Origin: Leptospiraceae bacterium | GTDB lineage: Bacteria; Spirochaetota; Leptospiria; Leptospirales; Leptospiraceae | Direction of reading: 5' to 3' | NCBI GenBank assembly: GCA_016711485.1 | Contig: JADJSX010000013.1 | Span: 86,889-150,888, forward strand | DNA: 64,000 nt | Part shown: positions 761 through 63,720 of the stretch, one piece after another | Layout of the letters: the number at the start of each line of letters is the position of its first letter | Position numbering within the stretch: position 1 is the stretch's first letter | The notes under the pieces: model-generated | Database searches by the model: none | What the model saw: only the letters and a program-made list of their open reading frames with translations | Told to the model about the DNA's origin: nothing | Program-made: the position numbers and the translations under genes

Positions 761-813
761 CCATTAACCATTAACCATTAACCATTAACCATTAACCATT
801 AACCATTAACCAT
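761..813. repeat. heptanucleotide tandem repeat (CCATTAA) x ~7.5
   Basis: Read directly: ccattaa repeated seven times plus ccat. It spans the TAA stop (806-808) of the cyclase gene and lies ~260 bp upstream of the ATG of the neighbouring minus-strand gene. Confidence 0.9.
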
Positions 814-3800
814 ATATTTCCCAAAACTTCCCATTCGGCATTAGCCCCTCTTCGTCTTTGGAAAATTCAGGTTTGATGCGATTTAGATAATACATCTTAA
901 CCACACCTTTGTTCTTAGCGGAGACTTCTCCTCGATACTCGCAATCGAAAAGGTCTTTTACAACTTCATAAGTTGAGTAGCTAATATTAATTCGCCCTGG
1001 AGTACCACTTGACTCCATACGACTTGCAGTGTTCACCGTATCCCCCCAAACATCGTATGCAAACTTGCGCTCTCCAATTACACCGGCAATGAGAGGTCCT
1101 GTATGGATACCAAGTCGTAACTCCCAGTAGGGAAATCCCATGTCTTCTTTTAACTTCTTCATCATATTCATAAATGATTGAATTTCCAAAGCCGCAAGAC
1201 AACAATCAATCGCATGAGTCGTATTTCGCCTTGGAATTCCACCCGCGCACATATAGCTATCGCCTATCGTTTTTAGTTTTTCTAAATTGAATCTCTCGCT
1301 TATCTTATCAAATTGAACAAAACATGCATCTAAGTCCTTGATTAGTTCCTGTGGAGTTAATGTTTCTGCAATCGTTGTAAATCCTTTGAAGTCAGTAAAC
1401 ATCACACTTACATTTTCAAATAATACTGGCTCTGCAAATCCTTTTTCTTTTAATTCGGCTGCTACATCTTTCGGGAGGATATTTAGGAGTAACTTCTCGG
1501 ATTTGTTACGCTCTGACTCTGCGGCTTCCAATAAAAAGGAATTATTTACGGCTAATGCTAATTGTTCACAGAGAGATTCAACAAATCGGATTTCATCATC
1601 CTTAAGTTTCTTCATTCCCCCAAACTTACCGATACTCATAATTCCAATTACTTCGTCGTTTACAAGAAGTGGAATCAAAAATACGAAATCAGTTTGAAAA
1701 TCCTTTTCCACCATTTTGTCTAGTTCGGATTTTCTATTCTCTCCAATTATTTTTATATTTTTTAGATACAAAGTTTTTTTACTTGTATATGTTAAATACA
1801 AACTACCCGATTCAGGAATGAGCGGAACTCTTAGTTTATTATATTTTTTCAATAAATCACTGTCAGTTCCCGAAATACATCTAGTAAACAATTCATTTTT
1901 TGTCTTGTCCACTAATTGCAGTTGAAATATATCTGTTTCTATTTTATTAGAAAGATTTTCCACTGCATGACTGAAAATTATATCTAAGTTATTAAAAGAA
2001 TTAATCACTTTGGAAAATTCATTTAGAAATTCAATTTGGGCTTTCGACTTTTCGGATTCTAATTGCGCCGCTAATGCTTTCTCTTTTTCTTCCTGCACCA
2101 GTTTGAATAGTGTCGCGCCTTGGATAACACCGGCAAGCTGTTCGGCTAATAGTGATAATTCGGTAATTTCTTCTTCTCTTAGACGGACAGATTCTATACT
2201 AAATAAATCGAGTGTGCCTATCGGGTTATTTTGCAAAATAATAGGAAGAGTCAGAAAAGATTTGTGTTTTAATACTGTTTGCATTGCCTTGCCACTTTCT
2301 GTTTTAACTTCTGCTTCTGCATCAGGGATAAAAATAGGGCTCTTTAAAATCAGTGCCCTCGAGTGAATACTATCAATATTCTTTGATGCTAAAGAAAGAA
2401 CACTGGAGCTAATCATCTTTTTGTGCTCAGGTGTAACGTAATCAGGAACAACTGCATTTGCAAATTTCAAAACATTCTCTTTTGGGTCTAGTGTGAATAA
2501 ACTATAATACGGTAAATTGTAATTATCCTTAACATAGGAAAGAATTATTTTCATTATCTCTTCCAAGTCAGAGGTTTCATTTACCTTTTTGATTAATAAA
2601 TTCAAGTCTTCCGTTTTCTGTTTGGCTTTTTCAACTTCTAACTTAGCGATTACACTTATACCACGTTCAATTTCTGCTTCGATTCGTGCGGTATCAGCTT
2701 GCGACTTTGCCTTTTCCATTTCTGCCAGTAGATTCGAATTATAGATTGCTCCTGTTAGCTGATCTGCAATTGTTTCTAATGTTGTAATTTCAGATTCTTT
2801 CAAATCCAGAATACGATCATAATTACCAAATCCTAATATTCCAATTACATCCCTCTTTAAAAGCAAAGGGATTAGTAAGGCGGACTTTAATTTATTAAAA
2901 TCAATGAGTTTCTTTTCCATTTCATTGATAGATTCCGTTAGTTCTTTTGTATAGAGAGTTTCTTTTGTTTGATAGACATATCCCAAGGCATGATCTATTT
3001 TCTCTAAACTAAATTCATAATTCAAAAGTTCTGATTCAGTTAAGGTTACATGATCCTTAACTGTGTTCGAAATATGATTTAATACAATTATATTTTTTTG
3101 ATTTTCAACTAGATACAAAGCACAAAGATCTATTCCAAAACTTTGATTCACAAATCCCATTGCTAAGTCTAAAATCCCTTTTATATTTAGATTGGAATTT
3201 ACAGATTTGGATATTTCGTTTAGTGTTTCCGTTTCCTGTTTTGCAATTACTGCCTTTTCTTTCGCTTTCTCGACTTGTTGTAGCAAATGATTCGTATCCA
3301 CTGAGCTTGCAATTTGAGAACATAGATTGGAGATTTTATGAATATCCATTTTAGAAAGTTTCATTTCCTTTTCAAAATTGGAAAAAGAAAATATTCCTAC
3401 ACATTCGTCTTTTCGCACGAGTGGGACTTGTAGAAACGAAACTATAGACAGTTTTTCAACTATTTCTTTATCAATTCCGAATTCAAATTTAGGAATTTTT
3501 CCCAAAAAGAATGGCTTCTTTCTTTGAAATGTTTTATATAACATTCCACCTTCATTTTCCTTCATCGGAACTTTTCTATTCATCAGGTAATCATATTTAT
3601 CCGCAGGAAGTTTGTTATAACTATAAATTTTAAAAGCGGATAAATACTCCCTCTTCTCATCCGGTAAAAATAACCATATCGCAGTAATTCCAAATTTATG
3701 ATAAAAGTATTTGGAAATTTCTGTGAAGATACTATTCAAATCAGATAGAGAATTTACAAGATGAGAAAATGTATTAAGCTCTTCGATTTCTTTTTTGGTT

Positions 3801-5737
3801 TCGGTTAATTCAATATAAGCTTGTCGTCTTTCCTCGGATTCAAAAAGACTTGCCAAAATATTTGCAAGGGAAGAAACAAAGTTTTCCTCATCGACAGTCC
3901 AATCTTTTTTTATTTCTATTTTTTCGCAGGAGATAACTCCTATTATTTTACCGCCAGAGCGAATCGGCGAGTCAAGAGCAGATTGTATTTTTAAAATTGT
4001 GTGATAGTCTTCATTGAACTCCATTATACCTGAATGCGTATATACGTCACTCGCCGAGAGTATGTCTTCTTCTTTTAGATACTGAAAGTATTTTGGAAAA
4101 TTAGAAAATAAAAAGTGCACACCTTGTTCATGTTTATTTTCTCTGGCAGTAAATAAATCGATACTCTTTAATTCATTTTTTACATCTTCGAGTTTCCAAA
4201 TACTAACTCTGTCTATATTTAAAATTTCGCAGCATCTCTCAGTAATCTCTCTTAATGCAGCCTCAAAACCAAAAAGCTCATTTGTTTTACTTTTACTTAA
4301 TTCTAATAGACGTTGGCTGTATTTTTCTTTTTCTCTCACACCATCAGAAATTTTACTTTCCAAACTTTGGGTTAATACCTGTAAGTCGTCACTTAGTTTT
4401 TCTGCTACTTCAAATCCACCTGCAAAACGACGGGAGAGGATGATTGATTGCATAAAAATAAATGCTACGAAACCATACTGCACTAGAAGCGGTGATACTA
4501 TCAGACTCATTCCATTCAAAATATCATTAACAACAGTAAGAGCAAATATTGCCCAACTGACTAATATTAATTTTGCGCCTGGCAGACGTTGGACTGCGGA
4601 AAAGATTTGCACTTTGAAAATATAAACTATTGATAACAATACAGTAATCTGTGCGGGTAATAATGTATATGCGTATATTTTTAAAGGAAATAAAATTACG
4701 ATGGCAGATAATGGAAAAAGAATAAAACTTAAAACTCGAATCCATTTTTTTTCGAATTCAGTCGGAAACAAGGAATGGATGTATTGGGCAAATACATAGC
4801 TACCGTAATAAAAAGCAAAATATTCAAACTTGTGCATGATTAAAAAAGACAGGTTCGGTACAATATCTAAAATTACCGATTCATCCAAACTAGAAGTTCG
4901 AATAGCAAATAGAATACAGAATAGTCCAAAGTATAAGGCTGTCTTATCTTTTTTTCGATTCAAATACAATCCAAGATGGTAAAGTCCCATCATAAGAAGA
5001 GAAGCAATTACGAATAAATCGAGAATTAACTTTTGTTTGGCATGCTTTTCAATTTCTATAGTAGAACCAAGTTTAAAAGGTAACCATAACCCAGACATTA
5101 TATGATGAAAATTTGATACATGCACAAGGATTTCAATTTCGTTTTTATCGGGAATCCGAGGAAGGCGCGAAAGCGTTTTCGCGCCTTCCTCGGATTCGAA
5201 ATTATATAAAAATCCATCAATCGGAAAATGGCGATACTGCCGAAATGGAACCGAATCCTCTTTGGACATCCCAACCTTTCCATTTACAGAGGCAAGTTTT
5301 CCATTGATATACATTTCGTATGATGTTCCTGCGTCGGTCATTGCGATGGATAATCCATGTTCGTGTAGGCGATGCATATATGCGTCACCTACACGAACGG
5401 ATTTTGCGGGAACGAATTCCGGCAATAGCACCCGCAAACGATAAGTTGCATAACCATCGACCGGATAACCATGATTTTGCCATTGGGAGGGAACGGGGAT
5501 GTAATTAGGAACAGACTCTTTCCAATAAAACTCCCATTCTCCATCGAGGTCAATCGTACCACCTTCCATTAACGAGTGGTTTAAACCACTCGTTAATGGA
5601 AGCTCTCGCAAATCCAATACACCTTTCACTGCCTTCGGTGGAATTTTCTTTGACTCTTGCGGATTACAAGAAAAAAGAAAAAGTATAAAAAACAGAAGTA
5701 GAATGTAAATAGAACGGTTCATGGTAATAGTGGACAA
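806..5737 (-). CDS. 7TMR-DISM receptor / multi-GAF / class III adenylate (guanylate) cyclase, 1643 aa
   Basis: Signal peptide, 7TMR-DISMED2-like periplasmic region (LDLRELPL...GEWEFYW), a 7-TM block, several GAF-like modules, and a C-terminal cyclase domain (FTDFKGFT...IGDSYMCAGG...HTGPLIAGVIGERKFAYDVWGDTVNTASRMES). Confidence 0.85.
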   Translation of the reverse strand: MSTITMNRSIYILLLFFILFLFSCNPQESKKIPPKAVKGVLDLRELPLTSGLNHSLMEGGTIDLDGEWEFYWKESVPNYIPVPSQWQNHGYPVDGYATYRLRVLLPEFVPAKSVRVGDAYMHRLHEHGLSIAMTDAGTSYEMYINGKLASVNGKVGMSKEDSVPFRQYRHFPIDGFLYNFESEEGAKTLSRLPRIPDKNEIEILVHVSNFHHIMSGLWLPFKLGSTIEIEKHAKQKLILDLFVIASLLMMGLYHLGLYLNRKKDKTALYFGLFCILFAIRTSSLDESVILDIVPNLSFLIMHKFEYFAFYYGSYVFAQYIHSLFPTEFEKKWIRVLSFILFPLSAIVILFPLKIYAYTLLPAQITVLLSIVYIFKVQIFSAVQRLPGAKLILVSWAIFALTVVNDILNGMSLIVSPLLVQYGFVAFIFMQSIILSRRFAGGFEVAEKLSDDLQVLTQSLESKISDGVREKEKYSQRLLELSKSKTNELFGFEAALREITERCCEILNIDRVSIWKLEDVKNELKSIDLFTARENKHEQGVHFLFSNFPKYFQYLKEEDILSASDVYTHSGIMEFNEDYHTILKIQSALDSPIRSGGKIIGVISCEKIEIKKDWTVDEENFVSSLANILASLFESEERRQAYIELTETKKEIEELNTFSHLVNSLSDLNSIFTEISKYFYHKFGITAIWLFLPDEKREYLSAFKIYSYNKLPADKYDYLMNRKVPMKENEGGMLYKTFQRKKPFFLGKIPKFEFGIDKEIVEKLSIVSFLQVPLVRKDECVGIFSFSNFEKEMKLSKMDIHKISNLCSQIASSVDTNHLLQQVEKAKEKAVIAKQETETLNEISKSVNSNLNIKGILDLAMGFVNQSFGIDLCALYLVENQKNIIVLNHISNTVKDHVTLTESELLNYEFSLEKIDHALGYVYQTKETLYTKELTESINEMEKKLIDFNKLKSALLIPLLLKRDVIGILGFGNYDRILDLKESEITTLETIADQLTGAIYNSNLLAEMEKAKSQADTARIEAEIERGISVIAKLEVEKAKQKTEDLNLLIKKVNETSDLEEIMKIILSYVKDNYNLPYYSLFTLDPKENVLKFANAVVPDYVTPEHKKMISSSVLSLASKNIDSIHSRALILKSPIFIPDAEAEVKTESGKAMQTVLKHKSFLTLPIILQNNPIGTLDLFSIESVRLREEEITELSLLAEQLAGVIQGATLFKLVQEEKEKALAAQLESEKSKAQIEFLNEFSKVINSFNNLDIIFSHAVENLSNKIETDIFQLQLVDKTKNELFTRCISGTDSDLLKKYNKLRVPLIPESGSLYLTYTSKKTLYLKNIKIIGENRKSELDKMVEKDFQTDFVFLIPLLVNDEVIGIMSIGKFGGMKKLKDDEIRFVESLCEQLALAVNNSFLLEAAESERNKSEKLLLNILPKDVAAELKEKGFAEPVLFENVSVMFTDFKGFTTIAETLTPQELIKDLDACFVQFDKISERFNLEKLKTIGDSYMCAGGIPRRNTTHAIDCCLAALEIQSFMNMMKKLKEDMGFPYWELRLGIHTGPLIAGVIGERKFAYDVWGDTVNTASRMESSGTPGRINISYSTYEVVKDLFDCEYRGEVSAKNKGVVKMYYLNRIKPEFSKDEEGLMPNGKFWEIYG

Positions 5738-14074: not shown

Positions 14075-14250
14075 CTAACTCACCTTACGCAAAATTGGTA
14101 ATTTATGGAAAGAAGGAAAATCATGAGAATATTAGATAAAGCTAATAAATTAATGAATAAGCAGGTTTGGGCGGCAGCCCAAGTCGCCGACAGGCTCCAA
14201 ATCTCTCACCTCAACGCGCTTGCGCGTAAGGTGAGATACTAAATATTTTT
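14075..14250 (+). other. small-ORF/hairpin element copy A; includes a candidate 39-codon ORF at 14123..14242
   Basis: Conserved upstream box (ctaactcaccttacgcaaaattggtaattt), RBS aaggaaaatcATG, and ORF MRILDKANKLMNKQVWAAAQVADRLQISHLNALARKVRY*. The 3' hairpin tctcacct-caacgcgcttgcgcgt-aaggtgaga contains the stop codon and is followed by a T-rich run. Confidence 0.35.
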
Positions 14251-28803: not shown

Positions 28804-31800
28804 TCATTTGATTTCTAACTCTTTTTTAAATTTCAAAATTCTTATTTCCTCGGGATCGAGTTTAATACAATCGTCTAAAATCACTTTGGCTCTTTCCATT
28901 CTTCCCAATCCTTTGTAAGTATCAATTAAATTCATAAGGTTGTCTAAATGCTCGGGGCGACGCATTCGAAATCTCTCGCCGAAATCAACCGCCCTTTCCA
29001 ATTTGCCAACCTGTCTTAGTGCATAAGAAACATCATACATATATTCAGATAAATGCGGATAATCGGAAATAACCTTTATACCATACTCAATTACATTTGG
29101 GAAATCTTTTTTTGCTTTGTATTCTTCTAGCTTTTCCAGATCAGCTTCGAGTTGGCTTGAATCCTTACTCCCTCCTTTGAAATGAATTTTAAGTAGAGAA
29201 AGATCATCAATTAATTTACCAGTATTTGAAATTTCTTCCTGAATTTTTTCTAAATCACCATCTGCTATTTTGATATGATTTAAAAATAAGTTTTCATCCT
29301 GATTAATAATCTCATATCCTTCTGAATCTTTTCCAATGCATATATCATCTCGTCCGTCAGAGCCAATTATAACAATATCATCCGAATGCAAAGAAAAAAC
29401 AGAAACGGAGATACTTCCCATTTGCCCCTGTGTCCCGAGCTTGGTATAATGTTTTGGATTTTCTATGAAACTTGCGAGTCCATCGCGATAGAGTGCAATA
29501 GGAGGATGCTCTGCATTCATATAGTACATCGTTCCTGTTTGCTCATCGACTAATCCAAACACAGCGGACATTAGCATCGATCCATCAAATCCTTCAAACG
29601 ATTTATGCATTTCAATAAACGCATTCTTAAGCCATCTCTCTGGATAAACAGTCTTTCCATAATCAGTAGCTTTTGTTCTTTGTATGATCGACTTAAAAAC
29701 AGTGCCTAACACCAATACTCCGCCGGCACCTTGAATCGACTTACCCATTGCATCCCCGTTTAAGAATACGGTATACTCTTTACCCTGCAATTCCATATTC
29801 TCAGCAATATTAATATCTCCGCCTAATTCGTATTCGTTTCTGCGGAAAATAAATGTTTTCTTTTGTTTAATAAAAAAATCAATCCCCACGTTTTTACTAA
29901 ATGCATTATTCTGTCCTAGAGGCTCAATGAGAAGTGTATTCAAAAAATAATCCCCGTCTTGTTGTTCTTTGAGTCCACGGACTTCGACGAGTGCTTGATT
30001 TAGATCGCGAGTTCTCTCTTCTACTTTTTCTTCTAGGTTAGCATATAACAATGAGTTTTCTACACTCACCGCAATCTGAGAAGATAAGACTTTTAGTATT
30101 TCTACTCTGTCTGGTGTAAAAGCATCTGTCGTAAGGTTATTTTCCAAGTAAACCACTCCCACTAAGTTTCCCTGGTTGATGATGGGATAACAGAGAATAG
30201 ACTTTGGTTGTCTTTTTACTACGTAAGAATCATTCGTAAACGCCCCTTTCTTCATCGCGTCATTTAACAGAATAATTCCCTTGGTTCGAATTACATAATT
30301 TACAATCGCGGAGGATAATTGTGATTTGTCCTCCAAAGGCTTTGCTTCTAATACCGTAATTGTGTCCGTATTTGCATTTCCTTCTGCTTCAATAATCCAG
30401 TTCTGATTTTCTTTTAGAATAAAAAATCCTCTTTCTGCTCCTGCGTTTTCAAATAGAATTTTCATCATCTTTTTTAGAAGTTTTCCTAAATGGATTTCAC
30501 CGGATATTGCTTGGGATGCTTTTACGACTGTGTTCAAATCTAGTAGAGTTCCAGTTGCGCTTGCATTTGAATTAGAGCTAACACTAACATCTTTCGCAAA
30601 TTCCTGTTTCGCATGACGCTTCAACTGTGGATATTTTTCTTCAAGCTGTTTTACCTTTGGCTCGCAGCCCCATTTTTTATAGGCGTAGTGGGCTTCTATT
30701 AAAAATATATTCGCAATTTGATCTTCTTCTTTTTCTAGCCACATCTTCGCTAAAAATTCGTTCGCCAGTGCTTCTTCTAAAAGGTACTCGTGTTCTTTCG
30801 CTAATGCGATCGCTTTTTTAAGTTCTTGTCTCGCTTTTTCAAAATCCCCCATTGAGTAAATCAAAAGCCCGTTTACGATATGGTATTTATGCCCGTAGTT
30901 CGCAGGACAATTCTCTGCCCAGACTTTCATACGTTCTTGGTTCTTTTGGATTTGTTCCAGATACTTAGTCTTATCCTCTTCGGATGAATCAGGTAATTCC
31001 AGAAGTGAGAGGCAAGAAAGAGAATCCCAGAAATTATGCTCAGCAACAAACATCATTCCAAAACATCCGCCTTCGTGTGGCTCCCCTTCTCTCGCATAAC
31101 GGTATGCTTCTAAAGGAGAACCAAAGAGGTAATTCAATGTTAGCTTATTCACATAATAATTAAAGAGTGTAGTTGAGTTTTTCGTCTCTTTCCAGATAGA
31201 GACAATTTCCTTTTCATTGAAAATATCTCCATTCATTTCCATTAGACTTTTTCCTAATCCTTGCAAAATTATGGACATTTCATAGTTGAGGCAAAACATA
31301 TGCTTTGGATCTTCTTGTTTTAATTTAGCAAAGTTAGAAAGAAATTTTGAAAAACTCGAACTTACTTCCGAAAGATTTTTCCGCATAAGCAAAGATTGAA
31401 AATTAAAATGGTTCGTGGAATAACCAGCATTCAAGAAATCACCTGAATCCATACCAGCTTGTATACTTTCTAAAAAGTAAGGCAGATCCAATCTGGCATG
31501 TTCTCTCCAATGGTTATTCATACAGGCAAAAAAGAAAAAACCTGCGCACTTGAGATTTTTTGCATTTAACTTTTCGATTATTTTGATTCCAAGCTTACCT
31601 AGTTTGTTTCCAAGTTCATAGTTCCCGATCCCTGAACCCATAATTATACCGTACAATATAAATGCCAGACCTGATTCCTTAGCAAGGCTATTATCCTCTA
31701 AAGTTAGGTTTACCATTTTTAAAACGGTCAATGGAAAAAGACTGGGTAATGTTATATAGGCAGGAACGATACTCACAGCTAGGATTCGCGTGATTGCCAG

Positions 31801-34575
31801 TTTTTCTGGCGAAGTCATTTGACGAAGATCAATAAGTTCTTCGATTTGCCTTTCTCCTTGTAACTGAAATGCTTTCATAACTTCAGGTGTCGGGTCATGG
31901 ACTTCTGGAAAATCTATCCCTAAAATAGCAAGGGCTTTAAGTCCTATATCCAAAGCTTCTCTAAGTTTATTTTGACCAACGTAAAGAGGAATTTGCAGTT
32001 CATACACAAGCGCTTTATCTAATATTGTATTAGTGTTTTCTAATATGATTGTAAAAAATTGATCTGCTTCTGCATGATTACCGTTTAAAGATTCAAGTTT
32101 GGCTCTATTGAGATAGATACTTAGAGCCTTTTGGTAAGAAGTTTCCCAAATGTCTTTAGGAAAAAATTGCATAGCAATTCGATAACAATCCAAGGCTACA
32201 TCATAAGCCGAAGAGGCTAATGCCTTTTCACCCGCAAGAACGTTTAAATCGATAAGTTGATTTTTTTCCTGCTCGCTCAATAGCATTGTACATTGATTCA
32301 ATTGTCCCACAATCGTAAAAATCAAATCCTCAATATCTTCTTCTTTGGTTATTTTTAAATAAGTCGATCCAATCGCATAATGATTCTTAGCCCTTTCTTC
32401 TTCCGAAATTAAAGAATAAGTAGCCTCTCGAATTTTATCATGAACAAACTTTACAGTATTTCCTCCGATAAGTAAAAAACCTTCATTGGAAATTTGCTCT
32501 AATTCAGTCTTCAACTCTCCGGAAGATTTACCAGAGATTTGCGAAAGCAGTTCTGTTTCGAATGTATCACCGATACAAGCGGCTAATTTTAATATTTCCA
32601 TTTGGTTAGGAGTAAGTTCCTGAACTTTCTCTACCATGAGGTCTATCACGTTCTCGGAAATTTTAGCCTCTCGGATTTTAGAAATATCCCATTTCCACTG
32701 GACAGAGGGTCTAGACAGGACAGTGGGTTGCAACCCACTGTCTAAATATACCAACCCATCTTTATAAAACGAGGTAAATAACTCATTTACAAAAAAAGGA
32801 TTTCCGTTTGTCTTCTCAAATAGAATCGTCGCGAGTTCCTTTGCATTTGACTCTTCACAATTCAAAGTATCTTTTACTAAATGGGTAATGTCCGAAATTC
32901 CGATTGGGGTTAGAATTATTTCTTTGTATACAAATCCTGACTTTTTTAATTCCGCAAGCATTAACGAAAATGGATCTGTAGGCAACACCTCATTATCCCG
33001 AAACGATAACATAAGATACAGATATTTCATTTCTGGATTCGATAGAATTGTTTGAATTAGTTTGATACTAGGTGTATCCGCCCATTGCATGTCATCCAAG
33101 AATATCGCAATAGGATGTTCCTTCGTGCAAAATGCTTGAATGAAATTCTGAAATACTAAATTGAATCTATTCTGTGATTCCGTGGAACCTAGTTCTGCGG
33201 GTTGTTGTTGTTTGCCTATCAAGGTTTCTAGTTCGGGTATCACGTCTATGATGACCTGTCCATTTGAACCAACAGCCTGTAAAAGCCTCTCTTTCCACTG
33301 CGAAATAGACTCAGATTTCTCTGTTAATATCTGCTGGATTAAACTCTGAAATGTTTGGGTGATCGCCCCATACGGAATGGCTCGTTTGAACTGATCGTAT
33401 TTTCCTGAACCAAAATATCCTTTGTATTCCGTAATCGGTTTATTGACCTCGTTGATTAATGCCGATTTGCCGATGCCGGAATGTCCAGATATTAATTGTA
33501 AAGACGCACGGCTGTGCGTCTTTACATCGCCGTTGGAGGACGTGCCGCCGCGCGTCCCTACGATATCCTTGAAGGATTCAATGATTTGGTTAATTTCATT
33601 TGTTCGCCCATATAATTTTTCGGGTATTTGGAATTTGCCCGAATGATCGTGGGTGCCTATTTTGAAATCGTCGGATGGATTAATCAAAGTTATCCCCTCT
33701 CCTCTTAGGAGAGGGGATAATTCTTTAGATTGGACAACTCCAGCAGGGTCAGGGGAGAGGTTATTCAAACACCATTCCAAATCATATAGAAGACCTGCAA
33801 TGCTCTGATACCTATCTTCCGGATTCTTTTGTAATAATTTCATTATTATATCGGACAGCGTAGAGACGCACGGCTGTGCGTCTCTACTATGCGGTGGAAT
33901 TGGCATTTTGGCGATATGGGCATGGACTAATTCCATCGGGTCTGTATTGGTAAAGGGGAGTTCTCCCGTAAGAAGTTGATAGAAGGTAACGCCTAACGAG
34001 TAGTAGTCCGTGCGATAGTCCACTGTTCGGTTCATTCTACCTGTTTGTTCCGGAGATATATAGGCTAACGTTCCTTCCAGATTGTTCTTCATATTGATCT
34101 CTGGACTTTCTTTCGTTAAAAAAGAAACAGAACCAAAGTCAATTAAATTCAGAGTCTTGCTATTAGAGTTATAAACGATGTTATGCGGTTTCAAATCCTT
34201 ATGAATCATATTGTGCTTTTGGATTTCTGCCAAAGCCTTTGTAGCCGCTATCGCAATTTCTACAAACTCTTCTATGCCGAAATTTTTCTTTTCATCCAAT
34301 AATGCTGCAAGAGAAGATGCACCTATATCCTCAAAAATAATGACTAAGCTATTTTTATAAGATTCTACTCCTAAAACTTTTACAGAATGTGCTAAAGAAA
34401 ATTTCTTAATAATATCATATTCTTTTCGAAACGCTTCTAATTCATGATTAGTAGGATACTCTTTATTTAGGTATTTCAAAATAACGGGTGTATCCCCTTT
34501 CTTGGCACGGTATACTATGCTTTTTTCTCCAACATGAAGTTCAGCTTTTATTTCATAGCCTGTTAGTGTTATCAT
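28804..34575 (-). CDS. giant Ser/Thr protein kinase / P-loop NTPase (STAND-like) / TPR / GAF / PP2C (SpoIIE) protein (1923 aa)
   Basis: Hanks-kinase motifs (HKDLKPHNIV, DFGSV, SPEQ), P-loop GHSGIGKSAL, long TPR-like helical region, a GAF domain, and a PP2C/SpoIIE C-terminus with a final TPR-like tail. Confidence 0.85.
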   Translation of the reverse strand: MITLTGYEIKAELHVGEKSIVYRAKKGDTPVILKYLNKEYPTNHELEAFRKEYDIIKKFSLAHSVKVLGVESYKNSLVIIFEDIGASSLAALLDEKKNFGIEEFVEIAIAATKALAEIQKHNMIHKDLKPHNIVYNSNSKTLNLIDFGSVSFLTKESPEINMKNNLEGTLAYISPEQTGRMNRTVDYRTDYYSLGVTFYQLLTGELPFTNTDPMELVHAHIAKMPIPPHSRDAQPCVSTLSDIIMKLLQKNPEDRYQSIAGLLYDLEWCLNNLSPDPAGVVQSKELSPLLRGEGITLINPSDDFKIGTHDHSGKFQIPEKLYGRTNEINQIIESFKDIVGTRGGTSSNGDVKTHSRASLQLISGHSGIGKSALINEVNKPITEYKGYFGSGKYDQFKRAIPYGAITQTFQSLIQQILTEKSESISQWKERLLQAVGSNGQVIIDVIPELETLIGKQQQPAELGSTESQNRFNLVFQNFIQAFCTKEHPIAIFLDDMQWADTPSIKLIQTILSNPEMKYLYLMLSFRDNEVLPTDPFSLMLAELKKSGFVYKEIILTPIGISDITHLVKDTLNCEESNAKELATILFEKTNGNPFFVNELFTSFYKDGLVYLDSGLQPTVLSRPSVQWKWDISKIREAKISENVIDLMVEKVQELTPNQMEILKLAACIGDTFETELLSQISGKSSGELKTELEQISNEGFLLIGGNTVKFVHDKIREATYSLISEEERAKNHYAIGSTYLKITKEEDIEDLIFTIVGQLNQCTMLLSEQEKNQLIDLNVLAGEKALASSAYDVALDCYRIAMQFFPKDIWETSYQKALSIYLNRAKLESLNGNHAEADQFFTIILENTNTILDKALVYELQIPLYVGQNKLREALDIGLKALAILGIDFPEVHDPTPEVMKAFQLQGERQIEELIDLRQMTSPEKLAITRILAVSIVPAYITLPSLFPLTVLKMVNLTLEDNSLAKESGLAFILYGIIMGSGIGNYELGNKLGKLGIKIIEKLNAKNLKCAGFFFFACMNNHWREHARLDLPYFLESIQAGMDSGDFLNAGYSTNHFNFQSLLMRKNLSEVSSSFSKFLSNFAKLKQEDPKHMFCLNYEMSIILQGLGKSLMEMNGDIFNEKEIVSIWKETKNSTTLFNYYVNKLTLNYLFGSPLEAYRYAREGEPHEGGCFGMMFVAEHNFWDSLSCLSLLELPDSSEEDKTKYLEQIQKNQERMKVWAENCPANYGHKYHIVNGLLIYSMGDFEKARQELKKAIALAKEHEYLLEEALANEFLAKMWLEKEEDQIANIFLIEAHYAYKKWGCEPKVKQLEEKYPQLKRHAKQEFAKDVSVSSNSNASATGTLLDLNTVVKASQAISGEIHLGKLLKKMMKILFENAGAERGFFILKENQNWIIEAEGNANTDTITVLEAKPLEDKSQLSSAIVNYVIRTKGIILLNDAMKKGAFTNDSYVVKRQPKSILCYPIINQGNLVGVVYLENNLTTDAFTPDRVEILKVLSSQIAVSVENSLLYANLEEKVEERTRDLNQALVEVRGLKEQQDGDYFLNTLLIEPLGQNNAFSKNVGIDFFIKQKKTFIFRRNEYELGGDINIAENMELQGKEYTVFLNGDAMGKSIQGAGGVLVLGTVFKSIIQRTKATDYGKTVYPERWLKNAFIEMHKSFEGFDGSMLMSAVFGLVDEQTGTMYYMNAEHPPIALYRDGLASFIENPKHYTKLGTQGQMGSISVSVFSLHSDDIVIIGSDGRDDICIGKDSEGYEIINQDENLFLNHIKIADGDLEKIQEEISNTGKLIDDLSLLKIHFKGGSKDSSQLEADLEKLEEYKAKKDFPNVIEYGIKVISDYPHLSEYMYDVSYALRQVGKLERAVDFGERFRMRRPEHLDNLMNLIDTYKGLGRMERAKVILDDCIKLDPEEIRILKFKKELEIK
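33507..33563. repeat. 54-bp in-frame GC-rich insertion inside the kinase gene; it contains a REP-like motif and abuts a palindrome
   Basis: cgtagggacgcgcggcggcacgtcc (minus-strand sense, 33538-33562) is near-identical to the REP motif cgtagggacgcgcggcgcacgtcc flanking the RAYT at 60360 and 60987. The insertion encodes DIVGTRGGTSSNGDVKTH, which the paralogue 37028..40855 lacks. An adjacent perfect palindrome aaagacgcacggctgtgcgtcttt lies at 33500-33523. Confidence 0.55.
33861..33886. repeat. second GC-rich perfect palindrome (tagagacgcacggctgtgcgtctcta) inside the kinase coding region
   Basis: It shares the same core (gacgcacggctgtgcgtc) as the palindrome at 33500-33523. It lies in-frame and encodes HSRDAQPCVST. 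Confidence 0.45.
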
Positions 34576-37027: not shown

Positions 37028-40000
37028 TTAGTTCTTTAAATAAGGATACGTTTTTTCCATCGTCGCAAGCTTTGGTTTACATCCCCATTTCTGGTAAGCA
37101 TAATGCGCCTCAGTAAGGTGTGCCTTGGCAAACATTTCTTTTTTTTGCGCAAACCAATACTTAGCCGCAAGCTCGTTAGCAATCGCTTCTTCTAACAAAT
37201 ACTGATGCTCTTTCGCAAGTGAAATTGCTTTGTCATAGAGTTCGAGTGCATCATCCGTATTACCTGCTATTCGGGTAAGCTCTGCTTCTACAATATAGTA
37301 TTTATGTCCGTAGTTCGCAGGACAGTTCTCAGCCCAAACTTTCATACGTTCTTGGTTCTTTCGTATTTTATCAAGTGGAGGTTCTTTTGAAGCAAGGCAG
37401 GATAGTGAATGAAAGAAATATTGCTCTGGTGTGCTTGTAAGTCCGAACGATCCACCTTCACAAGGCAATGCTAACTCGCTATATTCGAATGCCTTCTCAT
37501 AGTCCTCAAATATATAATACAAAATCGTTTTACATTGGTAGTACCAATACAAACAACTAGCATTTTGTGTTTCTTTCCATAAATTTGAATCTTTCTCTTC
37601 GTCAAACTTTTCTCCCGTCAAAGAAAATTTATCAGAATGAGTGCCCGTGAGATTCAAGACTAGTTGTTCCCAAAGTTCGTACGCTCGCTGAGAATCCTCC
37701 TGATTCAGGCTTACTATTTTTTTATAATAGTCTTTTGATCTCTCTTCTATTAAGTTAAGATTTTCTCTAGCATGAAAAGGCTGGAATAATAAATAGTTAA
37801 TTGAGTATGAGGAATATTGAAAGTCGCCCGTATTCATTCCTGACTCAAACGATGCGGTTAAATATTTTTTATTTTCTTTGATTGGCTTTTTCCAGTGATT
37901 TACCATTCCCCCAAAAAAGAAAAATGTTTTGGATTTCATTTCTTTTGCGTTTAATCTTTCAATAAGCGTCACACCTAACTCGCCAAATTTTTGTCCAACT
38001 TCATAATTTCCAAGAGCAGAGCCAAGAATTACTCCATACAAAACATAAGCAAATGCAGCGTATTCTGAATTTCCAAACTCTAAAGAAATATTTACCATTT
38101 TCAATACTAGGATAGGAAAATAAGCTGGATTCGAAATGAAAGCAGGTGCAATAGAAGCGGATAATAAACGTAATGCGGCTAAATGAATAGGATTTTTAGT
38201 GATAGGAAGTTCTAAAAGACTTTCGATAGTTCTCTCCCCCAGTCTAGAATTTGCTTCCCCAATTAAAGCACCAACAGATTCATTGCTAGCGCCGGGGAGC
38301 GGAAATCCAAGTATAGCCAGTGTATCAATTCCAGTATCAAGAGCTTCCTTAAGCTTGGCAAGACTAGTGTAGTAAGAGATTTTAATTTCATTTATACTTG
38401 CTTTTTCTAGATTTGTTTTAGCATATTTTAAAAGAGTTTCGAAACATGCATCTGCTTCTTTATTATTACCATTTAAATATTCTGCCTTAGCAAGATCAGT
38501 GTAAATATTTAAAGTTATATCATACTTACTTTCCCATGATTCCGCGGGTAATAATGTTAATCCGACTCTGATTAGGATTAATGCAGATTCGTAAGCAGAA
38601 GAAGCAAATGCTTTATCTATTGCTTTTAGATTCAAATCCAAAAGCATTTCTTGCTCATTACTCCCAGTAACATGCAATATCCCTTGGTTCAATTGGTTCA
38701 CGATTGTAAATATAAAGTCATCTAGATCATATAAACCTTCTTTACATAAACTCAAAAAGGTAGTGCCTATCTTATAATGATTTAGAGATTTTTCTTCCTC
38801 TGTCATGAAGGTATAAGTAGCCTCTCGAATTTTATCATGGGCAAACCGCACCTCTCCTCCTCCAAGTAAAAGATAACCTTCATTGGCTATCTGTGCTAAA
38901 ATTTCTTCAGTTTCAGCGAGAGATTTATTTATAATACGTGAGAATACAGAAACGAGAAACCAGTTACCGACACAAGCGGCTAATTTTAGTAAGTCTCTCT
39001 TTTCTGAACTTAATAACGAAATATTGGAGCGAGTATGCTCAATTACATTTTCTGAAACTGCAACCTGCTTTACCTTCGCTATTTCCCATTTCCATGAATC
39101 ATAATAGTAAACGACGCCATCTCTATACAAAGAGCGAAAAACCGAGTTTACAAAAAAAGGATTTCCCCCTGTCTTAGAATGAATGATCTGAGAAAGTTCC
39201 GAGCTAGACTTTTCGCTAGAATCCAGAGTATCCGCAACCAACTGATTGACATCATTTTCACTTAGTGGGTTAATAGAAATATTTGTTATTTCTAATCTAG
39301 TCTTCTTTACCTCTTCTAAAATTACTGCAAAAGGATGTATCGCATCTACCTCATTTGAACGATAGGCTAAGATAATAAATAGAGACTGTAATGAGCTATC
39401 GGTTAGAATTGTTTTTAAAAGATTTAAGCTAGAAATATCAGCCCATTGCAAATCGTCTAAAAACAATACAAGCGGATGATCTTCTTTACAAAAAATTCGA
39501 ATTAAATTTACGAACAAAAGATTTAGTCGATTCTGTCCTTCCATAGCCGGAAGCTCTGTTGCATTTGGCTGCTCTCCAATAATCAACTCTAATTCTGGAA
39601 TAATATCCGTAAGAACTTTTCCATTAATTCCAACTATTTCTAATATCTCTATTTTATATTTTTCTAACTCTAACGTATCTAGAGTAAGAATCTGCTCGAC
39701 CAAATTGCGAAATCCTTGTATGAGCGCATAATAAGGGATATTCCTTTTAAATTTATCAAACTTCCCTGAAATAAAACGCCCTTTGTATTCGACAATAGGT
39801 TTTTGAACTTCCTGAATAAGTGCCGTTTTCCCAATTCCCGAAATTCCAGATACTACGGCTAATGCCAATGAGCCTCTGCTTGCCTTCTCGAATGTTTGAA
39901 TCAACCGCTCGCTTTCTGCTTTTCTTCCATATAATTGCTCTGGAATTTGAAATCTGGAAGATTGATCCTTGGTTGCAAGTAGGAAAGATTCTATTTTTCC

Positions 40001-40855
40001 ATTAGTTTCCCATCTACTCAAACATTCCTTTAGATCATGGAGAATTCCATTTGAAGACTGATACCTGTCCTCTGGATTTTTTTCCAGAAGTTTTAGGATA
40101 ATATTAGATAGTCCTGATATCTCTGTCTGTTCCACTAGCCCTGGGTTTAAACCCTGAGTTAGTAGAACGTCGTTAGGCGGAATTGGTTTCTTCGCCAAAT
40201 GTGCATATACCAATTCCATCGGATTTTTAGATATAAAAGGAAGATTTCCTGTAAGCATCTGATAGAATGTAACCCCTAGAGAATAATAATCAGTACGATA
40301 ATCGATACTTCGATTCATTCGTCCTGTTTGTTCTGGAGAAATGTAAGAAAGTGTTCCTTCTAAATTCTGAGTTTTGATAGAGGGATTTTCCCTTGTGAGT
40401 AAAGTTGCATTTCCGAAATCTATGATTTGTAAAACCTTTGTCCCTGGATTAAAAATCAAATTATGTGGTTTAATATCCTTATGCACTGCACCGAGGGAAT
40501 GAAGTTCTCCAAGTGCTTTTACTGCGAGCATAGCAATTTCTAAAAACTCTGGGATAGGAAACTGACCTTTCTCTTTTAAAAGTTCACGAAGAGACTTACC
40601 TTGAATATCCTCAAATACTAAGATGGGACTATTTTTGTATTTTTCAAATGCAATTGGTTTTACAATACAAGGCAAAGAAATTTTTTGCAAAAAATCAAAT
40701 TCCTTTCGAAATCTTTCTAATTCTATTTGCGTAGGATATTCTTCATTTAAGTATTTTACAATTACCGGTTTGCCGGATTTTTCCCCTCTATATACAATGC
40801 TCTTATCTCCTCTGTGAAGTTCTGTTTCAATTGAATAGCCCTGCAAAGTAATCAT
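37028..40855 (-). CDS. Ser/Thr protein kinase / P-loop NTPase / TPR protein (1275 aa), paralogue of the N-terminal two-thirds of 28804..34575
   Basis: Kinase motifs (HKDIKPHNLIF, DFGNA, SPEQ), P-loop GISGIGKTAL, and a TPR-like region whose C-terminus (KAHLTEAHYAYQKWGCKPKL) mirrors the linker in the fused paralogue. Confidence 0.85.
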   Translation of the reverse strand: MITLQGYSIETELHRGDKSIVYRGEKSGKPVIVKYLNEEYPTQIELERFRKEFDFLQKISLPCIVKPIAFEKYKNSPILVFEDIQGKSLRELLKEKGQFPIPEFLEIAMLAVKALGELHSLGAVHKDIKPHNLIFNPGTKVLQIIDFGNATLLTRENPSIKTQNLEGTLSYISPEQTGRMNRSIDYRTDYYSLGVTFYQMLTGNLPFISKNPMELVYAHLAKKPIPPNDVLLTQGLNPGLVEQTEISGLSNIILKLLEKNPEDRYQSSNGILHDLKECLSRWETNGKIESFLLATKDQSSRFQIPEQLYGRKAESERLIQTFEKASRGSLALAVVSGISGIGKTALIQEVQKPIVEYKGRFISGKFDKFKRNIPYYALIQGFRNLVEQILTLDTLELEKYKIEILEIVGINGKVLTDIIPELELIIGEQPNATELPAMEGQNRLNLLFVNLIRIFCKEDHPLVLFLDDLQWADISSLNLLKTILTDSSLQSLFIILAYRSNEVDAIHPFAVILEEVKKTRLEITNISINPLSENDVNQLVADTLDSSEKSSSELSQIIHSKTGGNPFFVNSVFRSLYRDGVVYYYDSWKWEIAKVKQVAVSENVIEHTRSNISLLSSEKRDLLKLAACVGNWFLVSVFSRIINKSLAETEEILAQIANEGYLLLGGGEVRFAHDKIREATYTFMTEEEKSLNHYKIGTTFLSLCKEGLYDLDDFIFTIVNQLNQGILHVTGSNEQEMLLDLNLKAIDKAFASSAYESALILIRVGLTLLPAESWESKYDITLNIYTDLAKAEYLNGNNKEADACFETLLKYAKTNLEKASINEIKISYYTSLAKLKEALDTGIDTLAILGFPLPGASNESVGALIGEANSRLGERTIESLLELPITKNPIHLAALRLLSASIAPAFISNPAYFPILVLKMVNISLEFGNSEYAAFAYVLYGVILGSALGNYEVGQKFGELGVTLIERLNAKEMKSKTFFFFGGMVNHWKKPIKENKKYLTASFESGMNTGDFQYSSYSINYLLFQPFHARENLNLIEERSKDYYKKIVSLNQEDSQRAYELWEQLVLNLTGTHSDKFSLTGEKFDEEKDSNLWKETQNASCLYWYYQCKTILYYIFEDYEKAFEYSELALPCEGGSFGLTSTPEQYFFHSLSCLASKEPPLDKIRKNQERMKVWAENCPANYGHKYYIVEAELTRIAGNTDDALELYDKAISLAKEHQYLLEEAIANELAAKYWFAQKKEMFAKAHLTEAHYAYQKWGCKPKLATMEKTYPYLKN

Positions 40856-55389: not shown

Positions 55390-55565
55390 TATTAACTGAC
55401 ATTACGCAAAATTGATAATTTACGGAGCCAAAGATGATTTTGAGAATATTAGAGAATGCTAATGAATTAATAAATTCAATAGCCTGCGGCAGCAAGCCCA
55501 CCGCTAGGTGCAAACCTCAAGCGGAAGCTGGACTCACCTTGCGTAAGGTGAGTTATTAAATGTAT
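55390..55565 (+). other. small-ORF/hairpin element copy B; candidate 41-codon ORF at 55434..55559
   Basis: Upstream box ttattaactgacattacgcaaaattgataattt, RBS ggag, and ORF MILRILENANELINSIACGSKPTARCKPQAEAGLTLRKVSY*. The 3' hairpin ctcacctt-gcgt-aaggtgag is followed by ttattaaat. Confidence 0.35.
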
Positions 55566-60020: not shown

Positions 60021-60130
60021 TCTATTAGATTAGAGGACGTCTGCCGGTTCTATTAGAGGACGTCCGCCGGTTCTATTAGAGGACGTCCGCCGGTTCTATT
60101 AGAGGACGTCCGCCGGGCGTCCCTACGGGA
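60021..60130. repeat. tandem array (~4 x 23 bp, tctattagaggacgtccgccggt) of GC-rich REP-like palindromic units abutting the RAYT stop codon
   Basis: Read directly. The unit contains the palindrome GGACGTCC. The array ends in cgtccctacggg, which provides the TAG stop of the transposase. Confidence 0.75.
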
Positions 60131-60761
60131 TTAATCGTTCTAAATCGTTCTCCCAGTTTTTGGGATTTTTTTGAATGTATGTCTTAATATAATAAAATTC
60201 TTTTTCATCTCGTATGATATGGTCATGGTAGCGAGATTGCCAAACAGTTAATCCAGAAGTACGTTGAATTTCATTAATGCGTTTTGTAACAACAGATTTG
60301 AATCCTGCAAAAAAAGACGATATTGATTTCGGCAAATAATTTTTATTATTTCCGCCCCGTAGGGACGCGCGGCGCACGTCCTGTATACGATAAATCACGT
60401 CCTCTATACATTTAACGTTCTGTTTTTCGTTATCGTTTGGAATTTCGTTATCGTTTGGAATTTCAATTATAGGACGTCCGCCGGACGTCCCAACGTGGGT
60501 AATAATGGCGTGAATGTGATTGGGCATAATGATATATTCCGCACAGGATAATTCCTTTCGAATTTCAAAGGATCTTAACCATTCTTCTTCGACTATTTTG
60601 CCGAGATCATTTAAAACCATTTTCGAATCAGAAATTTTACCAAATAAACGTTCTCTGTTTTTCGTAACGACTGTAACAAAATAATACCCTGCGCTCGAGT
60701 AATCAAAACCTTGCAATCTGGGCGATTTTCTATTAAAAAATTTTTGTCTATATAGTGTCAT
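60123..60761 (-). CDS. REP-associated tyrosine transposase (RAYT; IS200/IS605-like Y1 HUH transposase), 212 aa
   Basis: HUH motif IIMPNHIHAII and catalytic-Tyr motif QSRYHDHIIRDE, with a YYFVTVVTKNRERLF N-terminus. The region between the motifs is expanded by REP-like GC-rich segments (encoding VGTSGGRPI and RIQDVRRASLRGG) and an 18-bp tandem duplication encoding IPNDNE twice. Confidence 0.8.
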   Translation of the reverse strand: MTLYRQKFFNRKSPRLQGFDYSSAGYYFVTVVTKNRERLFGKISDSKMVLNDLGKIVEEEWLRSFEIRKELSCAEYIIMPNHIHAIITHVGTSGGRPIIEIPNDNEIPNDNEKQNVKCIEDVIYRIQDVRRASLRGGNNKNYLPKSISSFFAGFKSVVTKRINEIQRTSGLTVWQSRYHDHIIRDEKEFYYIKTYIQKNPKNWENDLERLIP

Positions 60762-60927: not shown

Positions 60928-61020
60928 GCAAATATTTTTAGGACGTCCGCCGGACGTCCCTACGGGAATTCAATAAATTTTTCAATATCCACGTAGGGAC
61001 GCGCGGCGCACGTCCTATAT
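60928..61020. repeat. REP/BIME-like GC-rich palindrome cluster upstream of the RAYT
   Basis: taggacgtccgccggacgtcccta is a perfect palindrome. The inverted pair cgtccctacg ... cgtagggacg lies 26 bp apart, and gtagggacgcgcggcgcacgtcc is shared with 60358-60382 and with the kinase-gene insertion. Confidence 0.7.
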
Positions 61021-61274
61021 AGGATAAATCACGTCCTAAAAACGATAAATCACGTCTAAAAATAATAAATCACGCAATCTATACGATACAAAAAAAACAA
61101 ATCGTCTAAACAACAAGATCAATCGAATTTTTAAAAATCGGGAGATGTTCGTATTTTGTCATAAAAATCTTTCCGCCTGACGGCGGATCAACTAACAAAT
61201 TCGAATTCCTTCTTTCGTGTCAAACAATATCGAACATGTGAACATCTTCATTGAAAGCGAACAAACGTTTTGGA

Positions 61275-63544: not shown

Positions 63545-63720
63545 TATTAACTGACGTTACGCAAAAAAGGAAAATTATGAAGTTTGAAGATAAATTAAGA
63601 ATATTAGAAAATGCTAATGAATTAATAAATTCAATAGCCCGCGGCAGCGAGCCCACCGCTAGGTGCAAACCTCCCGTGGACGCAGGACTCACCTTGCGTA
63701 AGGTGAATTATTAACTTACG
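63545..63720 (+). other. small-ORF/hairpin element copy C; candidate 45-codon ORF at 63577..63714
   Basis: Upstream box ttattaactgacgttacgcaaaa, RBS aaggaaaattATG, and ORF MKFEDKLRILENANELINSIARGSEPTARCKPPVDAGLTLRKVNY*. It carries the 3' hairpin ctcaccttgcgtaaggtga. Only the GC-rich core differs from copy B. Confidence 0.35.

Follow-up and report, generated by a model that had tools for sequence, protein, structure and literature searches.

We analysed a 64-kb stretch of DNA from a Leptospiraceae bacterium (contig JADJSX010000013.1; hereafter, the window), in which a giant kinase gene contains short GC-rich palindromes resembling repetitive extragenic palindromes (REPs). The window is AT-rich (34.1% GC), and its proteins match those of an uncultured Leptospiraceae bacterium. 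At a distance of about 27 kb from the kinase gene lies the open reading frame (ORF) of a REP-associated Y1/HuH transposase (RAYT). Full-length kinase homologues in other Leptospiraceae are mostly 1863-1917 residues long, and thus most of them are shorter than the kinase of the window by about 40 residues. An exact-protein lookup found no record for the 1923-residue kinase, and both tRNA and Rfam scans over the 64-kb window gave no matches. The Pfam match to AAA_16 begins in the kinase at profile position 23 (aa 356); the paralogue at 37028..40855 matches profile positions 1-167. The kinase gene and the palindromic elements within it are as follows.

Positions 28804..34575, minus strand: host gene of 1923 aa, with Ser/Thr kinase, AAA_16 NTPase, TPR, GAF and SpoIIE phosphatase domains (ORF list, translation and Pfam).
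Positions 33860..33887, no strand: perfect palindrome of 28 nt with a 12-bp stem, GTAGAGACGCAC-GGCT-GTGCGTCTCTAC, encoding SRDAQPCVST (aa 230-239), part of a C-lobe loop of the kinase.
Positions 33538..33562, minus (coding) strand: GTAG-tagged REP of type B, consisting of 24 nt (33538-33561) and a leading C; the 25-mer CGTAGGGACGCGCGGCGGCACGTCC encodes (I)VGTRGGTS (aa 338-346).
Positions 33497..33526, no strand: perfect palindrome of 30 nt with a 13-bp stem, TGTAAAGACGCAC-GGCT-GTGCGTCTTTACA, encoding (D)VKTHSRASL(Q) (aa 350-360); it belongs to the 28-nt GTAG palindrome family.
Positions 33690..33720, no strand: perfect palindrome of 31 nt without GTAG tag, TTATCCCCTCTCC-TCT-TAGGAGAGGGGATAA, encoding LSPLLRGEGI in the kinase/AAA linker; hairpin energy -14.7 kcal/mol.
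Positions 32719..32742, no strand: perfect palindrome of 24 nt without GTAG tag, GACAGTGGGTTGCAACCCACTGTC, encoding DSGLQPTV (aa 612-619).

The kinase ORF thus holds three GTAG-type elements, one 24-nt REP and two copies of the 28-nt palindrome. Two perfect palindromes with a common core had been recognized in the initial annotation, and this was confirmed, the full extents being 33497-33526 and 33860-33887 and the earlier coordinates a few bases off. The shared 18-mer GACGCACGGCTGTGCGTC occurs at exactly two sites of the window (33503-33520 and 33865-33882), with 0 expected from 100 shuffles. Both palindromes are predicted to form stable DNA hairpins, with energies of -14.9 kcal/mol (z -8.3) for 33497-33526 and -14.3 kcal/mol for 33860-33887 (z about -8 for both). 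GC content peaks at 58% within 33520-33579, against 34% for the window. The GT(A/G)G head expected at one end of REP was found: GTAG heads are present at 33860, at 33558-33561 (minus strand) and, near the RAYT, at 60359 and 60993, and the copy at 33498 carries a GTAA head with compensating TTAC on the opposite arm. As short (20-40 nt) GC-rich palindromes with stem-loop potential, the 28/30-nt copies agree strongly with the definition of REP, and the type-B element of the kinase agrees weakly. A 54-bp segment encoding DIVGTRGGTSSNGDVKTH, reported earlier at 33507-33563, is indeed present, but its true span is 33514-33567. It had been taken as one insert; in fact two elements of two REP families adjoin here, with about 11-12 nt between them. 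The kinase copies are single units, and do not form a REPIN, in which two inverted REPs are separated by a short spacer.

The RAYT locus of the window carries the following features.

Positions 60123..60761, minus strand: RAYT of 212 aa, with HuH motif PNHIHAI, Tyr motif WQSRYHDH and a 48-codon REP pair in the loop between the two motifs.
Positions 60359..60381, plus strand: REP of type B inside the RAYT ORF, encoding part of RIQDVRRASLRGG.
Positions 60472..60494, minus strand: REP of type A inside the RAYT ORF, reading GGACGTCCGCCGGACGTCCCAAC on the plus strand and encoding VGTSGGRP.
Positions 60941..61015, no strand: REPIN-like doublet upstream of RAYT, with type A (60941-60963) and type B (60993-61015) inverted and 29 nt apart.
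Positions 60029..60126, no strand: truncated type-A REP array just past the RAYT stop, composed of 23-nt tandem units and ending in a full type A (60104-60126).

Identification of this ORF as a RAYT is based on the Y1 HuH fold, the presence of both HuH and Tyr motifs and the family hidden Markov model; its homologues carry the Joint Genome Institute (JGI) name RayT, and a distant match was obtained to E. coli TnpAREP (PDB 4er8, E = 0.0018). For the intact protein, the Pfam match is weak and covers half the profile, and the NCBIfam match is split. After removal of aa 90-137, a single Y1_Tnp match was recovered over profile positions 6-121 of 121 with 31.1 bits (Pfam cut-off 23), and the NCBIfam model REP_Tyr_transpos gave 78.2 bits, just below its cut-off of 80. 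REP types A and B have a common head, CCCGTAGGGACG, with differences at three positions, A being GGACGTCCGCCGGACGTCC(CTAC) and B being GTAGGGACGCGCGGCGCACGTCC; the type-A hairpin has an energy of -8.7 kcal/mol (z -2.4). The copies at 60359-60381 and 60472-60494 constitute an inverted pair with the tags pointing outward, as in a REPIN. The proposal that the RAYT peptides VGTSGGRPI and RIQDVRRASLRGG are derived from REPs was confirmed by these two copies. Association with RAYT, as expected of REP, is evident, as REPs of types A and B lie inside the RAYT gene and on both sides of it. The type-B REP of the kinase is identical to GTAGGGACGCGCGGCGCACGTCC of the RAYT side (60359-60381 and 60993-61015) except for one extra G, and the RAYT-side copies were missed by a mismatch-only search because they differ from the kinase 25-mer by one absent G. 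The initial annotation was right in placing the core within one base of the RAYT REP motif, but the copy at 60359 is inside the RAYT ORF and not flanking it. Tandem repeats were also observed around and within the REPs of this locus, at 60029-60116 (23 nt), 60425-60464 (18 nt) and 61009-61074 (21 nt); the 23-nt unit represents a type-A REP in truncated form, and the 18-nt repeat, located within the spacer of the internal pair, reads IPNDNE twice in RAYT.

Comparison with homologues indicated that the kinase elements at 33497 and 33538 are insertions. As previously claimed, the paralogue at 37028..40855 lacks the REP-plus-palindrome segment. When 119 homologues were aligned with MAFFT, IVGTRGGT (aa 338-345) and THSRAS (aa 353-358) were found opposite gaps in at least 80% of the sequences. 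By the comparison with orthologues and paralogues suggested in the initial annotation, the segments at 33497 and 33538 are thus both missing from most homologues. Three other stretches of the query are gapped to the same extent, namely DPAG, PLLRGEGITLINP in the linker and LQPTVLSRPSV; among the five query-specific stretches, DPAG alone overlaps neither palindrome nor REP. The query reads FK-DIVGTRGGTSSNGDVKTHSRASLQ-LISG, against FK-EVAAGNTELV-LISG in the nearest orthologues, a gain of 16 codons. As judged from the alignment, this gain would correspond to a 24-nt REP and a 24-30-nt palindrome, with a few diverged native residues (SSNGD) in between. The copy at 33860 stands where the orthologues have about 10 unrelated residues (for instance, EKNKTPKVI), with about 7 native loop codons replaced and a net gain of 1-2 codons. 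Among the 119 homologues, no other lineage has inserts at aa 231 and 351. All five kinase elements recur in L244, an independent ENA assembly with 99.88% identity over 4204 nt, and therefore they are not assembly artefacts.

The 28-nt palindrome is widely distributed. A scan of species-representative genomes with AGACGCACNNNNGTGCGTCT gave at least 120 stretches (8 kb each) with at least 156 copies. Among the matches listed, the phyla were Bacteroidota, Chloroflexota, Spirochaetota (including a Leptospirales metagenome-assembled genome), Desulfobacterota, Planctomycetota, Calditrichota, Bacillota and others, and the extended form was mostly GTAGAGACGCAC-NNNN-GTGCGTCTCTAC, nearly invariant across phyla. 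A RAYT homologue (28-46% identity) is also encoded in 11 of the 120 stretches listed. If each genome carries about one RAYT, we estimate that about 0.2 such stretches would be expected, and the co-occurrence is far above expectation for a once-per-genome gene. In four stretches from Flavobacterium and Bacteroidales (L008, L044, L050 and L052), the palindromes form intergenic arrays similar to bacterial interspersed mosaic elements, with 4-6 copies per 8 kb at a spacing of about 55-85 nt. A metagenome scan with GTAGGGACGCGCGGCG yielded almost only chance matches in GC-rich contigs, none with the full REP, and a text search of papers for the 28-mer returned unrelated primer sequences only.

Intragenic location of the 28-mer was examined on contigs of less than 50% GC, counting copies within a stop-free frame of at least 200 aa that extends for 30 codons or more to either side of the copy. 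Among the matches listed, 28 of 132 copies (about 21%) lie in such long open frames. The host genes include a Type ISP restriction-modification enzyme and surface proteins sorted by the type IX secretion system (one with two copies), and in a radical-SAM/DUF6873 protein the copy is located in an inter-domain linker. On either strand, one frame of the palindrome contains TAG, which leaves just two frames for translation. All but one of the 28 intragenic copies are in a stop-free frame, giving peptides of VETHGRASL type (21 copies) or RDARPCVST type (6 copies); the sole exception (L109) is a copy without GTAG tag. The 33860 copy of the kinase is translated in the other open frame than the 33497 copy, and hence the kinase uses each frame once. 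A pyrimidine precedes the 28-mer in 44 of 55 cases and a purine follows it in 42 of 55; these flanking bases suggest a unit of 30 nt, whose length alone would maintain the frame.

The structural context was then considered with an AlphaFold2 model of kinase residues 1-700, built with 49 homologues (mean predicted local distance difference test score, pLDDT, 81). Segments with pLDDT below 50 were 154-187, 276-298, 343-352 and 615-618 plus 621-623. The first is, by position, around the predicted activation segment, and the remaining ones coincide with the palindromic inserts. The segment at 33538/33497 was modelled as a coil between helix 325-339 and strand 358-363, leading into the Walker A motif GHSGIGKS; the P-loop region (pLDDT about 92) and the flanks of the inserts were modelled with confidence. 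SRDAQPCVST of the 33860 copy forms a coil with pLDDT of 74-85 between helices 213-222 and 238-247. By this model, the kinase inserts are predicted to be disordered surface loops. The idea that the inserts add new peptide loops beside the P-loop thus gains support, in that the REP pair is placed just before the Walker A strand, but there is no sign of an altered fold.

Taken together, the GC-rich segments of the kinase gene are very probably non-autonomous GTAG-tagged REPs, acquired after the split from the sequenced relatives. With similar confidence, we assign them to two families: the first comprises the REP cognate to the window RAYT, and the second is the 28-nt symmetric GTAG...CTAC palindrome, which in many phyla is cognate to RAYTs of this clade. 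The claim of the initial annotation that REP-type elements reside in coding sequence with the frame preserved is supported by the identity with the RAYT REPs, the absence from paralogue and homologues, the cross-phylum family, the restoration of the Y1_Tnp match and the placement in loops. As to the mechanism, HuH/Tyr transposase would recognize the hairpin with its GTAG tag on single-stranded DNA, by inference from E. coli TnpAREP and IS200/IS605 (PMC3479197, PMC8266576). On the same biochemistry, the transposase would cut and rejoin DNA so as to disperse copies through the genome. In coding DNA, the only copies to survive selection would then be those whose added length is divisible by three, which are not read in the TAG frame and which fall in tolerant loops or linkers, and the survivors would be translated as the short peptides VxTHxRASL, RDAxPCVST and VGTRGGTS. 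The kinase inserts themselves are most likely neutral passengers, and not functional additions.

Several observations weigh against this interpretation. The kinase 25-mer alone forms a weak hairpin (-6.1 kcal/mol, z -0.75). The window has only six full REPs of types A and B, together with three truncated units, and the 28-mer occurs in it only twice; a RAYT carrying a REP of VETHGRASL type is absent from its 64 kb. The 33860 copy is a near length-neutral replacement that simple insertion does not explain, and the REP model leaves the two palindromic inserts of the kinase without GTAG tag unexplained. Target-site duplication was sought at the 28-mer copies and none was detectable, so that these data do not constrain the insertion chemistry. 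Neither an empty site nor a transposition event was seen at the strain level in one near-identical assembly, in which all copies are present.

Palindromes with GTAG tag were also found in kinase orthologues of Leptospiraceae, encoding VETHGRASL, VETHSHASL, VGTGRDLSL, VETRLIASL and VETRLIPSL, all of them located between query positions 272 and 278, within the kinase/AAA linker. Orthologues sharing this linker site include P0004, P0006-P0011, P0024 and P0071. In two loci, L241 with GTAGAGACGCACGGCCGTGCGTCTTTAC (10711-10738) and L242 with GTAGGGACAGGTCGCGACCTCTCCCTAC (10817-10844), different palindromes terminate at an identical codon position (...TAC|AG ATT GGC); no further such element was detected in the 25-kb sequence of either locus. 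As different palindromes occupy one codon position, the linker either tolerates inserts or attracts them repeatedly, and the shared position suggests a hot spot or the replacement of one REP by another. One more GTAG-type palindrome of the window lies in the gene for an adenylate cyclase.

Positions 5359..5398, no strand: intragenic GTAG-type palindrome with core GTAGGTGACGCATATATGCATCGCCTAC, encoding VGDAYMHRL in the 7TM-DISM/GAF adenylate cyclase ORF 806..5737; hairpin energy -15.9 kcal/mol.

This element represents a 17-aa insert absent from 120 homologues of the cyclase, and a peptide of the same type, GDAYMRHL, is present in the kinase linker of homologue P0012. No Pfam match was obtained for the N-terminal sensor domain of the cyclase, whether its inserts were kept or removed, and this domain is not comparable with the DISMED2 paralogue. 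In addition, the sensor domain of a 7TM-DISM histidine kinase of Leptospiraceae (P0121) contains a peptide, VGTGLRPVPT, resembling the GTAG-type palindrome, and therefore such inserts seem to be common in large Leptospiraceae sensor proteins.

Co-option of the intragenic hairpins, as binding sites for RAYT or another protein, as DNA or RNA hairpins modulating expression or as loops tuning the NTPase, is an alternative that we consider improbable. In its favour, the GTAG elements found away from the RAYT locus, four in number, are all located in two giant modular signalling genes that make up 17% of the window; the stems pair perfectly, with a compensated change (A-T versus G-C) distinguishing the two copies; one linker codon position holds different palindromes in several orthologues; and the RAYT clade keeps a REP in its own ORF (see below). 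The intragenic location of four out of four elements is, however, unremarkable at a coding density of 80% (p about 0.4). Furthermore, the inserts at 231 and 351 are found in a single lineage, they sit in loops modelled with low confidence, and the host genes are functionally unrelated across phyla, consistent with the argument of Di Nocera et al. (PMC3733652).

A second alternative is that the palindromes arose in place by template switching or fold-back copying, in which native neighbouring sequence is copied in inverted form, with no mobile element involved. We regard this as very unlikely for the GTAG elements. In its favour, the genes for the kinase, the paralogue and the cyclase contain in-frame palindromes of 24-46 nt, perfect or nearly so, that lack both a GTAG tag and a second copy (33690-33720, 32719-32742, 5152-5197, 5563-5602 and 40129-40168). 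Each is a lineage-specific insert in comparison with homologues, and two palindromes of 40 nt share the centre GGTTTAAACC. In the kinase, both PLLRGEGITLINP of the 33690 palindrome (pLDDT below 50 at aa 276-298) and LQPTVLSRPSV of the 32719 palindrome (pLDDT below 50 at aa 615-623) are query-specific among the 119 homologues. The left arm of 32719-32742, DSGL, is similar to native SEGL of the orthologues and the right arm is its inverted copy, and hence a local inverted duplication is possible; for at least one palindrome without the tag, this origin is as plausible as a mobile element. The GACGCAC...GTGCGTC palindromes, on the other hand, match each other and at least 150 copies in unrelated phyla, and the kinase 24-mer matches the RAYT-associated REP. 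Since local copying within the kinase gene yields neither identity, an in-place origin is effectively excluded for the GTAG elements.

Native sequence with coincidental similarity, or an assembly artefact, has a negligible chance of being correct: linker and loop lengths vary among the kinase homologues anyway, but the island of high GC, the exact REP matches with 0 expected by chance and the identical elements in the separate ENA assembly all stand against it. Both of these, like an in-situ origin, were rejected for the GTAG elements.

The best 120 of 1627 matches to the RAYT core (P0241-P0360) were fetched independently of any palindrome, and 59 of these 120 homologues carry a palindrome peptide, of strict VETHGRASL type in 50 and of DARPCVST type in 9. 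In the 59 carriers, 64 of 68 peptide occurrences fall between the HuH and Tyr motifs, in a hypervariable loop of 14-116 residues, and the RAYTs with such an internal copy come from several phyla. Short loops (about 24 aa) are devoid of the peptide, and long loops often contain several degenerate copies and low-complexity repeats. The palindrome DNA itself was identified at this loop in the RAYT ORFs of seven genome loci (L011, L016, L023, L030, L070, L093 and L120). The closest RAYT homologue (L243; 71% identity in the N-terminal half) carries a different REP, GTAGGGACAGGCGGCGGCCTGTCC, in the loop and an identical copy just after the stop codon. In the window, the internal type-B REP is likewise identical to the external type-B copy, and thus internal and external copies evolve together.

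The REP copies inside RAYT may reflect local hopping into a permissive loop, or they may be a retained site for self-recognition or autoregulation. We propose tentatively, and consider it rather doubtful, that a cross-phylum RAYT clade retains its cognate GTAG palindrome in the HuH-Tyr loop as a functional site of self-recognition or autoregulation, not just as tolerated junk; the internal copy would be held identical to the active REP of the genome, and the frame-preserving unit of about 30 nt would be a recurrent source of loop insertions of 8-10 residues in bacterial proteins. The publications consulted on RAYT and REP (PMC3337134, PMC5581495) deal with the flanking extragenic sequence and make no mention of REP inside the RAYT frame, although a description elsewhere is possible. 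The cognate REP kept within the RAYT gene is a more novel lead than the intragenic REPs of the kinase.

Apart from these palindromes, a conserved element of about 120 nt was observed three times between long ORFs of the window (14130-14250, 55440-55560 and 63595-63715), with a mean column identity of 80%; neither Rfam nor tRNA scans matched it. Small ORFs of 41-45 aa with similar sequences (...RILxxANxLxN...RKVxY) overlap the element, and a conserved hairpin, ACTCACCTTGCGTAAGGTGAGT, forms its end. A small-protein gene family or a leader element may be represented here.

The initial annotation compared the kinase inserts with the Rickettsia palindromic elements (RPEs). The likeness extends to the presence of in-frame palindromes but is an analogy only, as the elements are GTAG-tagged REPs; with a length of 24-30 nt and a GTAG tag, they do not fall into the RPE class. 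RPE-1 is about 100-150 bp in length. RPEs (Ogata et al. 2000, cited in PMC3733652) are also palindromes in frame within functional genes and give extra surface peptides, but they are CGTC-tagged (PMC3733652), lack an associated RAYT and belong to an alphaproteobacterium that is obligately intracellular.

The closest known system is the GTAG superfamily, defined together with the CGTC superfamily of REPs by Di Nocera, De Gregorio & Rocco in 2013 (PMC3733652). GTAG REPs are palindromes of 20-40 nt beside RAYT genes, forming 'REPtrons' (PMC3733652). REPs located wholly inside ORFs of known proteins were reported in Opitutus, Thauera, Xanthomonas, Rickettsia and others; this minority class adds extra amino acids, as single units or dimers and sometimes twice per gene, and was argued to be tolerated and not functional (PMC3733652). 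The kinase elements are likewise GTAG-tagged, RAYT-linked, inside an ORF and twice in one gene, and the kinase case is thus a kind of event already known since 2013. Three differences were noted. GTAG repeats were found in that survey in Proteobacteria, Cyanobacteria, Chloroflexi and the Planctomycetes-Verrucomicrobia-Chlamydiae (PVC) group, and not in Spirochaetes or Bacteroidetes (PMC3733652). The 28-mer described here is tagged on both strands (GTAG...CTAC) and near-invariant across phyla. The copies in the window are intragenic or RAYT-associated, and not predominantly extragenic. With the REPIN-RAYT system (Bertels & Rainey 2011; PMC3337134, PMC5581495), the window shares a RAYT that has HuH and Tyr motifs and is flanked by an inverted doublet (60941-61015), but the kinase copies are singlets of two families and the window RAYT has a REP pair in its frame. 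E. coli TnpAREP and the IS200/IS605 Y1 HuH enzymes (PMC3479197, PMC8266576; PDB 4er8) belong to the same catalytic family and recognize a hairpin with GTAG on single-stranded DNA, and by analogy this recognition is the presumed route of mobilisation of the window elements. The match to TnpAREP is a distant one only, and the clade of the window RAYT differs in having the loop of 14-116 aa after the HuH strand, in which REP is held.

These observations extend in-frame REP insertion to Leptospiraceae and, by way of the 28-mer, to Bacteroidota and other phyla. They also show that mobile hairpins regularly give rise to lineage-specific loop insertions in signalling proteins of large, modular build. 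These inserts confuse domain detection, as the AAA_16 and Y1_Tnp matches were truncated or split here, and the VETHGRASL and RDARPCVST signatures provide a simple annotation flag for them. If the REP inside RAYT is functional, it would offer a testable handle on the recognition and control of REPs by RAYT, which are still poorly understood.

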